From: Polyangiaceae bacterium
GTDB lineage: Bacteria > Myxococcota_A > Polyangia > Polyangiales > Polyangiaceae
Assembly (NCBI GenBank): GCA_035357995.1
Contig: DAOPOO010000024.1
Span: forward strand, 988-64,987
Length of the DNA: 64,000 bases
Direction of reading: 5' to 3'
Position numbers and translations under genes: made by a program. The notes under the pieces are model-generated. The model was not told the origin of the DNA. It made no database searches and worked only from the letters and a program-made list of their open reading frames with translations. The number at the start of each line of letters is the position of its first letter. The first letter of the stretch is position 1. Shown here piece by piece: positions 41,826 to 42,306 of this stretch.

Positions 41826-41899
41826 CGGGGCGTAGCGCAGCCTGGTAGCGCACACGGTTCGGGACCGTGGTGTCGGAGGTTCAAATCCTCTCGCCCCGA
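41826..41899 (+). tRNA. tRNA-Pro (anticodon CGG). No CCA is encoded.
   Basis: CGGGGCGTAGCGCAGCCTGGTAGCGCACACGGTTCGGGACCGTGGTGTCGGAGGTTCAAATCCTCTCGCCCCGA. The acceptor stem CGGGGCG/CGCCCCG pairs perfectly. Anticodon loop TTCGGGA. Confidence 0.8.
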
Positions 41900-41939
41900 C
41901 AGGAGTAGCTGGTTTCTTTCATGAAATCAGCTACTTGTC

Positions 41940-42180
41940 TTTTGTGGCCCCAACTTTCGTCTCGCTCGTTCATCGCCCCTGCTCCCTCTTTCCACGGCGT
42001 GCCCCCCTTCGCCACCCCATACACCCACCTTCCGTTTCCTTTCCTCAATCTCCCAAAACCAGCACTCCAAGCCATCAACCAATTCCTATCCTCTCAAAGC
42101 CTCCGCATGAGTCGAAGCGCCTGCCGCCCTGCCCATCCACCAGCCTCCTAAGAAGAGAAAATAATAATAAAAATACATAG
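41940..42180. other. Strand-asymmetric polypyrimidine (G-depleted) tract that ends in an AT-rich run ('agaagagaaaataataataaaaatacatagttataacc').
   Basis: Read directly from the sequence. The plus strand is almost free of G over about 230 bp. The minus strand carries the G-runs GGGG/GGGGGG/GGG/GGGG. Confidence 0.5.
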
Positions 42181-42306
42181 TTATAACCTAACGATCCCAA
42201 CGCCTCCGCCGTGCAGTAGCCGTTGACTTCGTCAGCCGAGGCAGCATCCCGCGCAGGGCGCATGGCTTGACTTGCCCCATCCGTTCGGTATTCCTACCGA
42301 CCACCG

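Follow-up and report, generated by a model that had tools for sequence, protein, structure and literature searches.

Between a tRNA-Pro gene and a gene for a family 2 glycosyltransferase (GT2), the 64 kb of Polyangiaceae DNA analysed here (the window; base composition refers to its + strand unless stated) carries about 200 nt of C-rich, G-poor sequence that is a real compositional outlier and is non-coding. In our best reading, this tract belongs to about 355 bp of orphan, lineage-specific junction DNA (approximately 41947–42300) that would separate two independently conserved blocks, since homology with relatives ends at 41946/7, just past the tRNA-Pro terminator, and the GT2 module recurs elsewhere with other upstream neighbours. 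The outlier thus appears to have an ordinary explanation, and the tract would be at most a putative Rho-dependent terminator within junction DNA, a role to which we give some credence, though short of even. Beyond annotation, where the stretch should not be entered as a gene, a G-quadruplex, an operon polarity suppressor (ops) leader or an island scar, the case matters little; it appears to offer a clean example of a compositional outlier being orphan DNA at a rearrangement junction beside a tRNA gene. The parts of the locus are as follows.

41753..41781 (+): promoter-like element of tRNA-Pro (TTGACA, 17 nt, CATGCT), read from sequence
41826..41900 (+): tRNA-Pro, anticodon CGG (ARAGORN; Rfam RF00005, 61.7 bits)
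41903..41946 (+): intrinsic terminator of tRNA-Pro (terminator scan: 14-pair hairpin, then the T-rich TTGTCTTTTGTGG)
41947..42149 (+): C-rich, G-poor, unstructured tract, a putative Rho utilization (rut) site (composition, YC density, low pairing, non-coding)
42150..42194 (strand unassigned): AT-rich block (20% GC, the most AT-rich 45-mer of the window)
42195..42306 (+): GT2-proximal upstream segment (TTGACT at 42223–42228 and 42267–42272), read from sequence
42307..43176 (+): GT2, the first gene past the tract (Pfam PF00535, E 3e-30)
43182..45303 (−): polysaccharide flippase (Polysacc_synt_3) and methyltransferase, convergent with GT2 (Pfam)

Composition and coding potential of the tract

The G depletion of the + strand after tRNA-Pro, to which an earlier note on this DNA had drawn attention, is real: the lowest-G 200-nt window of all 64 kb falls in the tract, with 10% G against a mean of 30% (standard deviation 4.9). 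The + strand contains 47% C, 22% T, 17% A and 13% G over 41945–42145, and 44% C, 25% T, 18% A and 13% G over 41920–42150, with G falling to 9% over 41960–42100. The description of this DNA as almost entirely C/T/A in a 60%-GC genome was therefore overstated, G being about 13% and the GC content 57% when computed over the 64 kb; nor does the tract lie immediately 3' of tRNA-Pro, as a hairpin terminator (41903–41946) intervenes. The best 78-nt window (42012–42089) has 36 C and three G, a C/G ratio of 12, while the maximum outside the tract among 78-nt windows on both strands of the 64 kb is 5.4. The density of YC dinucleotides (Y being a pyrimidine) is likewise 0.34 in the tract as compared with 0.14–0.16 in the window. 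The only other strongly G-poor stretch (7346–7557, G 13%) lies within a 355-aa glycosyltransferase-like coding sequence (6864–7931, + strand), which may be foreign, given that it is G-poor whereas coding strands here are generally G-rich.

The AT-rich string quoted in the same note is also present, and no 45-mer of the window has a lower GC content than the block that follows the tract (42150–42194; 20% GC against a mean of 57%, standard deviation 7). The other five of the six most AT-rich 45-mers have 22–27% GC and include the intergenic 55671–55715 and 57553–57597. The last 110 nt or so before the GT2 start (42195–42306) are of ordinary GC content and contain two TTGACT hexamers.

The open reading frames (ORFs) predicted inside the tract had been called implausible, and the coding tests agree. 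We trained a codon log-odds score on ten genes of the window that have Pfam support. The six frames of the tract, and also the four ORFs of 62–81 aa inside it, all scored from −0.36 to 0.00, below the lowest score of any real gene (+0.04; mean +0.23 ± 0.08), and a Pfam search of the tract ORFs gave no match. Scores were about 0 for the − strand frames and lower, −0.2 to −0.36, for those of the + strand. A 64-aa − strand ORF, called by gene callers in some assemblies, extends into the terminator and the tRNA gene, and a search of 5.8 billion proteins returned only this ORF itself and one single-substitution variant. The tract is non-coding.

A junction between two conserved blocks

To place the tract among relatives, we used four related, Polyangiaceae-like lineages (L047, L048, L136 and L137) found through SerA homologues (85–89% identity) and through a remnant of the gene for a protein like the major vault protein (MVP) that precedes tRNA-Pro in the window; the SerA and GT2 matches are to metagenome-assembled genomes of Polyangiaceae/Polyangiales. 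In an alignment of the five lineages, conservation covers the promoter, the tRNA-Pro gene and the hairpin together with its TTTTGTG tail. The TTGACA and CATGCT hexamers and their spacing are kept in all four relatives, and 41753–41781 probably acts as the tRNA-Pro promoter. The tRNA-Pro sequence is the same in L047, L136 and L137 and differs by 1 nt in L048, while the terminator is kept as a structure rather than a sequence: three relatives have hairpins of −23 to −29.5 kcal/mol in the corresponding position, built from other stem bases than the hairpin of the window (−22 kcal/mol). By both alignment and blastn, similarity ends at the TTTTGTG(G) tail, at window position 41946/7.

Beyond that point each relative goes its own way. 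L047 has the order serA, next gene, partly deleted MVP-like gene, tRNA-Pro (+), terminator and then convergent ThyX and peptidase M24 genes, so that its synteny with the window holds from serA through the MVP remnant and tRNA-Pro up to the breakpoint. L136 and L137 share the order serA, next gene, tRNA-Pro (+), terminator and a convergent AbiEii/DUF6922 toxin–antitoxin pair. In L048 the tRNA unit is inverted, adjoins peptidase M24 and faces a gene for a 258-aa protein. The gene after tRNA-Pro is thus convergent in 4/4 relatives examined and co-directional only in the window. None of the four has a C-rich tract, the best 78-nt C/G in their tRNA-Pro 3' flanks being 1.1–1.9. We also considered whether a C-rich 3' flank could be a general feature of tRNA design and rejected the idea, as the other tRNA flanks examined, among them those of tRNA-Arg, have C/G ≤ 2.

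On the other side of the junction, the three genes for GT2, flippase and methyltransferase make up a module that recurs in L053 and in L054/L055, with identities of 68–69% for GT2 and 82–85% for the flippase. Homology of this module spans approximately 42280–42307 to approximately 45393 only. In L053 and L054/L055 the downstream neighbours of GT2 are kept and the upstream ones differ from those of the window: genes lie 30–120 nt 5' of GT2, their products being a 325-aa protein in one case and a methyltransferase of 235 aa in the other, and no tract-like sequence was found upstream of either module. On the sequences compared, the GT2 module is next to tRNA-Pro, and in the same direction, in this lineage only. 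In L053, about 3 kb from the GT2 module (15953–17648), a transfer-messenger RNA (tmRNA) gene is directly followed by genes for a tyrosine integrase and an HTH_17 protein, a textbook island insertion at tmRNA that has nothing to do with the tract.

Some apparent relatives were set aside. L052/P0121 had seemed to be a relative with a 92% GT2 and another upstream gene, but it is 99.96% identical to the window from 42409 on and unrelated before that point, on a contig with 1.7x coverage. P0122, an apparent GT2 homologue at 99% over 79%, has a pattern like that of P0121. L052 (1–602), P0121 and P0122 are probably assembly chimeras joined at conserved GT2 motifs, and L052/P0121 and P0122 were left out of the evidence.

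The organism is known from metagenome assemblies, and its contig turns up again in many metagenomes. Over 20.9 kb, L001 and L003 do not differ from the window, nor does L002 in the 631-nt alignment around the tract, so that these copies give no information on variation in the population. A further copy, L139 (a contig of GCA_029973355.1 corresponding to window 37616–42299), is 99.9% identical, with four single-nucleotide polymorphisms (SNPs) over 4.7 kb. This contig stops 8 nt before the GT2 start codon, which could be chance or a hint of strain heterogeneity at the junction. There is no second copy of the tract elsewhere in the window, and no match in plasmid and phage collections (blastn) or in viral contigs (exact scan with two pieces). 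Searches of the tract by tblastn with the relatives' neighbouring proteins (ThyX, AbiEii, DUF6922 and the 258-aa protein) and with the upstream neighbours of GT2 also gave nothing.

Orphan DNA of this kind may have no function at all. The main rival to a role in termination, doubtful in our estimation, is that the tract is functionless filler or a decayed remnant left by the rearrangement. It could, for instance, be what erosion has left of the 3' end of a once convergent − strand gene, or filler from end joining. That it occurs in one lineage and lacks homologues both in relatives and in the rest of the window would fit such an origin, and one of the four L139 SNPs (41992 C>A) falls inside the tract, which is compatible with no constraint, a single SNP being too few to judge constraint. 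An eroded − strand gene would in addition fit the facts that a convergent gene follows the terminator directly in 4/4 relatives, that coding strands here are G-rich and a − strand remnant would leave a C-rich + strand, and that the − strand frames have the higher codon scores. However, the tblastn searches with the relatives' convergent neighbours and the GT2-upstream neighbours recovered no trace of such a gene, no frame attains the lowest real-gene score, and the C/G of 12 more than doubles the highest value in the window for the antisense of coding sequence (5.4), a composition for which plain decay of a typical gene does not account.

The tract had also been proposed to be the scar of a tRNA-targeted insertion that brought in the sugar cluster, which in its specific form would make it the attL side of an integrase-mediated island at tRNA-Pro. 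Part of this proposal stands: the tract lies exactly at the breakpoint beside tRNA-Pro, the DNA 3' of the tRNA gene differs in every relative (with a toxin–antitoxin pair there in one), and the sugar module adjoins the tRNA gene in this lineage only. The same variability of gene content is seen at tRNA-linked genomic islands. Unlike such islands, however, the locus lacks an att repeat and an integrase, and its breakpoint falls past the terminator, outside the tRNA gene. The 22-nt 3' end of the tRNA occurs once in 64 kb (up to three mismatches), there are no long direct repeats in 41000–52000, and no integrase, transposase or phage gene was found in 42–62 kb (Pfam, large ORFs of 42307–61588). 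The absence of similarity to the plasmid, phage and viral-contig collections also weighs against an island. Nor is an island end visible: the relatives' flanking genes do not reappear in the 22 kb downstream, which instead carry genes for the flippase, methyltransferase, thioredoxin, acetyltransferase, aminotransferase, a histidine kinase, a response regulator and assorted housekeeping and signalling proteins. The suggested island from 42307 to about 49873 has no support on this point, as synteny with the relatives does not resume at 49873, or anywhere before the window ends, and there is no repeat of the tRNA 3' end within the 64 kb, although a boundary may lie past the end of the window. We therefore regard an integrase-made scar as quite unlikely; the variable content 3' of tRNA-Pro fits a rearrangement hot spot. 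The tRNA-Pro unit itself, about 230 bp of promoter, tRNA and terminator, has opposite orientations relative to peptidase M24 in L048 (13014–13090) and L047 (10493–10571), as if this small unit had been flipped or moved as a whole.

Proposed Rho-dependent termination and alternative roles

Because GT2 is co-directional with tRNA-Pro only in this lineage, read-through from the tRNA promoter would drive GT2 unless it were stopped. We tentatively favour, at somewhat less than even confidence, the view that the junction DNA contains a Rho-dependent fail-safe terminator that insulates GT2 from such read-through. The first 200 nt past the terminator would be transcribed only by those polymerases that pass it; the read-through RNA, extremely rich in C, poor in G, without structure and untranslated, would bear the hallmarks of a rut site, and Rho would load on it and terminate transcription before GT2, shielding that gene from the tRNA promoter. 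GT2 would then be served by a promoter of its own, provided by the AT-rich block and the TTGACT hexamers. Transcription of the tract, loading of Rho and termination before GT2 are all inferred.

What supports this view is the agreement of the tract with what is expected of rut sites, namely at least 78 nt with C/G > 1 and a C every 11–13 nt (RhoTermPredict and the literature that it summarizes, PMC6407284). The 78 nt at 42012–42089 have a C/G of 12 and six C residues spaced 11–13 nt apart. The RNA is also predicted to be open and untranslated: the first 150 nt are mostly unpaired in the minimum-free-energy fold, the mean pairing probability is 0.1–0.32 over 41941–42060, and all frames are non-coding with no Pfam match. 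The high YC density points in the same direction, the YC dinucleotide being the unit bound by the primary site of Rho.

Known cases of Rho-dependent termination include lambda tR1, trp t' and a site downstream of the E. coli tRNA-Tyr gene tyrT. Like rut sites, the tract is at least 78 nt long, C-rich and G-poor, lacks structure and translation, and has many YC dinucleotides and C residues at regular intervals; like the tyrT site it lies downstream of a strongly transcribed tRNA gene and before the next co-directional gene. It differs from typical rut sites in its far more extreme C/G of 12, in its greater length (about 200 nt), in the good intrinsic terminator that precedes it and in the lack of a recognizable pause signal after it. 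It is also confined to one lineage. By sequence-level tests the tract is a putative member of the rut class.

As for a separate GT2 promoter, the AT-rich block may be promoter-upstream or curved DNA, and a sigma-70 scan called no promoter at it. The TTGACT at 42267–42272 is followed after a 16-nt gap by TATTCC (42289–42294), and together these form a candidate GT2 promoter; the consensus scan called neither this site nor the conserved tRNA promoter.

Several points weigh against a Rho-dependent terminator. First, no GG-N8-YG pause signal was found in 42090–42239, the 150 nt past the core, where the only perfect hairpin is AT-rich (42180–42192); the predicted fold does place imperfect GC-rich hairpins at about 42195–42245. 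Second, the tRNA terminator is strong, at −22 kcal/mol, so that little read-through may reach the tract. Third, the presence of Rho in this host, of whose genome 64 kb was seen, is taken from the near universality of Rho in bacteria. Fourth, the tract occurs in one lineage whose copies are 99.9–100% identical, with no sign of selection, and could be functionless filler. Finally, C/G > 1 by itself is a weak predictor, given that RhoTermPredict makes 23,930 predictions in E. coli (PMC6407284).

If a terminator of this kind does operate here, it would show an insulator between a tRNA gene and a newly adjacent gene in a myxobacterium, a group in which, to our knowledge, Rho-dependent termination has hardly been mapped. 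There is also a slim chance of something more specific: that after the rearrangement an unusually strong Rho-loading insulator arose from orphan DNA, or that the read-through trailer of tRNA-Pro is processed to a C-rich regulatory RNA like the known tRNA 3'-trailer sponges. Either version, if true, would represent a dated, lineage-specific birth of a transcription insulator or regulator at a junction.

A rut-like tract upstream of, and co-directional with, a polysaccharide gene would also be expected under a different form of Rho control, and it had been suggested that the tract is a 5' untranslated region or leader for GT2 and the sugar genes. Here a promoter directly after the terminator would drive a long, untranslated regulatory leader in which Rho attenuation is relieved by a NusG paralogue, as at JUMPstart/ops elements with RfaH, a system that is mainly gamma-proteobacterial. 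The tract does resemble JUMPstart/ops leaders in its position before a glycosyltransferase gene on the margin of a polysaccharide gene group and in being Rho-prone. It differs from them in lacking an ops element on the coding strand and a long operon behind it, and in not being conserved with orthologous modules. The ops core GGCGGTAG, with up to one mismatch, has no + strand match in 41901–42306, and its 56 matches across the window are at chance level (45 ± 6 expected). Nothing resembling a promoter was found between the terminator and the tract, GT2 is monocistronic, with convergent − strand genes directly after it, and no NusG paralogue is among the genes annotated around the site. The orthologous modules of L053 and L054/L055 have no such leader, with a gene only 30–120 nt upstream. 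We consider a regulatory leader unlikely, and the ops-like interpretation is not supported.

The proposal of a non-coding RNA fares no better. An independent small RNA could be a C/U-rich transcript of the + strand or a purine-rich transcript of the − strand acting as a GGA sponge for CsrA/RsmA, and the striking strand composition and the 11 GGA triplets in 199 nt of the − strand recall the many GGA triplets of sponge RNAs such as CsrB and RsmZ. Unlike in those RNAs, however, the GGA count equals the expectation from base composition (10.0 ± 2.3), so that there is no enrichment, and the motifs could not occupy hairpin loops because the RNA would be without C. Covariance models of Rfam 15 matched only the tRNA (at E up to 1 over 41000–43000, and at gathering thresholds over the whole window), the tract shows no excess folding relative to shuffled sequence (z of −1.4 for the + and −0.9 for the − strand), no promoter or terminator was found for an RNA on either strand, and the sequence is not conserved beyond this lineage. 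An independent small RNA is thus very improbable.

The last suggestion concerned the DNA itself, in that four − strand G-runs were thought able to form a G-quadruplex. The runs exist, seen as C-runs on the + strand at 41976–41979, 41984–41986 and 42002–42007, followed by CCCC and CCC by about 42026, but they do not pass the standard motif test: neither strand of 41900–42310 has a G-quadruplex motif with loops ≤ 7 or ≤ 12. One relaxed motif with loops ≤ 15 lies at 41984–42026, and the window elsewhere has 12 (+) and eight (−) of these, so that one in its most C-rich stretch is to be expected. With no conservation either, a structural element of DNA (a − strand G-quadruplex or a + strand i-motif) that controls GT2 or replication is barely credible.

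Neighbouring genes and a second breakpoint

Just 5' of tRNA-Pro, 39216–41705 (+) encodes an 829-aa homologue of the eukaryotic MVP (Pfam MVP_shoulder, E 2e-27; weak Vault_3). Bacterial homologues of MVP have already been described (bioRxiv 10.1101/872010). In scans of genomes and metagenomes, L047 apart, we found only relatives of this protein at 47–67% identity, in many phyla (Sericytochromatia, Polyangiales, Saprospiraceae, Desulfobacterales, Lentisphaeria and others). So patchy an occurrence suggests horizontal transfer. The same scans gave no close relative of the tract. In L047 the gene is a remnant (9782–10462) that matches window 40518–40939 and 41531–41705, with an internal deletion of about 590 bp, while in L136 and L137 it is absent between the serA-adjacent gene and tRNA-Pro. 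The gene has thus been gained or lost within the clade.

Downstream, we rejected as spurious a 473-aa ORF at 47306–48727 (−), which has no Pfam match and lies antisense to a thioredoxin gene (47414–47806) and a hexapeptide acetyltransferase gene (48089–48781) that are called in identical contigs.

Finally, tRNA-Arg(TCT) lies directly 5' of serA in three of the four relatives checked for this, among them L048, L049 and L050, with L136 as the exception. In the window, tRNA-Arg(TCT) (11474–11550, −) is instead 25 kb from serA (37176–38390, +) and inverted together with a block running from polA to an extracytoplasmic function (ECF) sigma factor gene (approximately 11.6–19.6 kb), so that a second tRNA gene also marks a rearrangement breakpoint.

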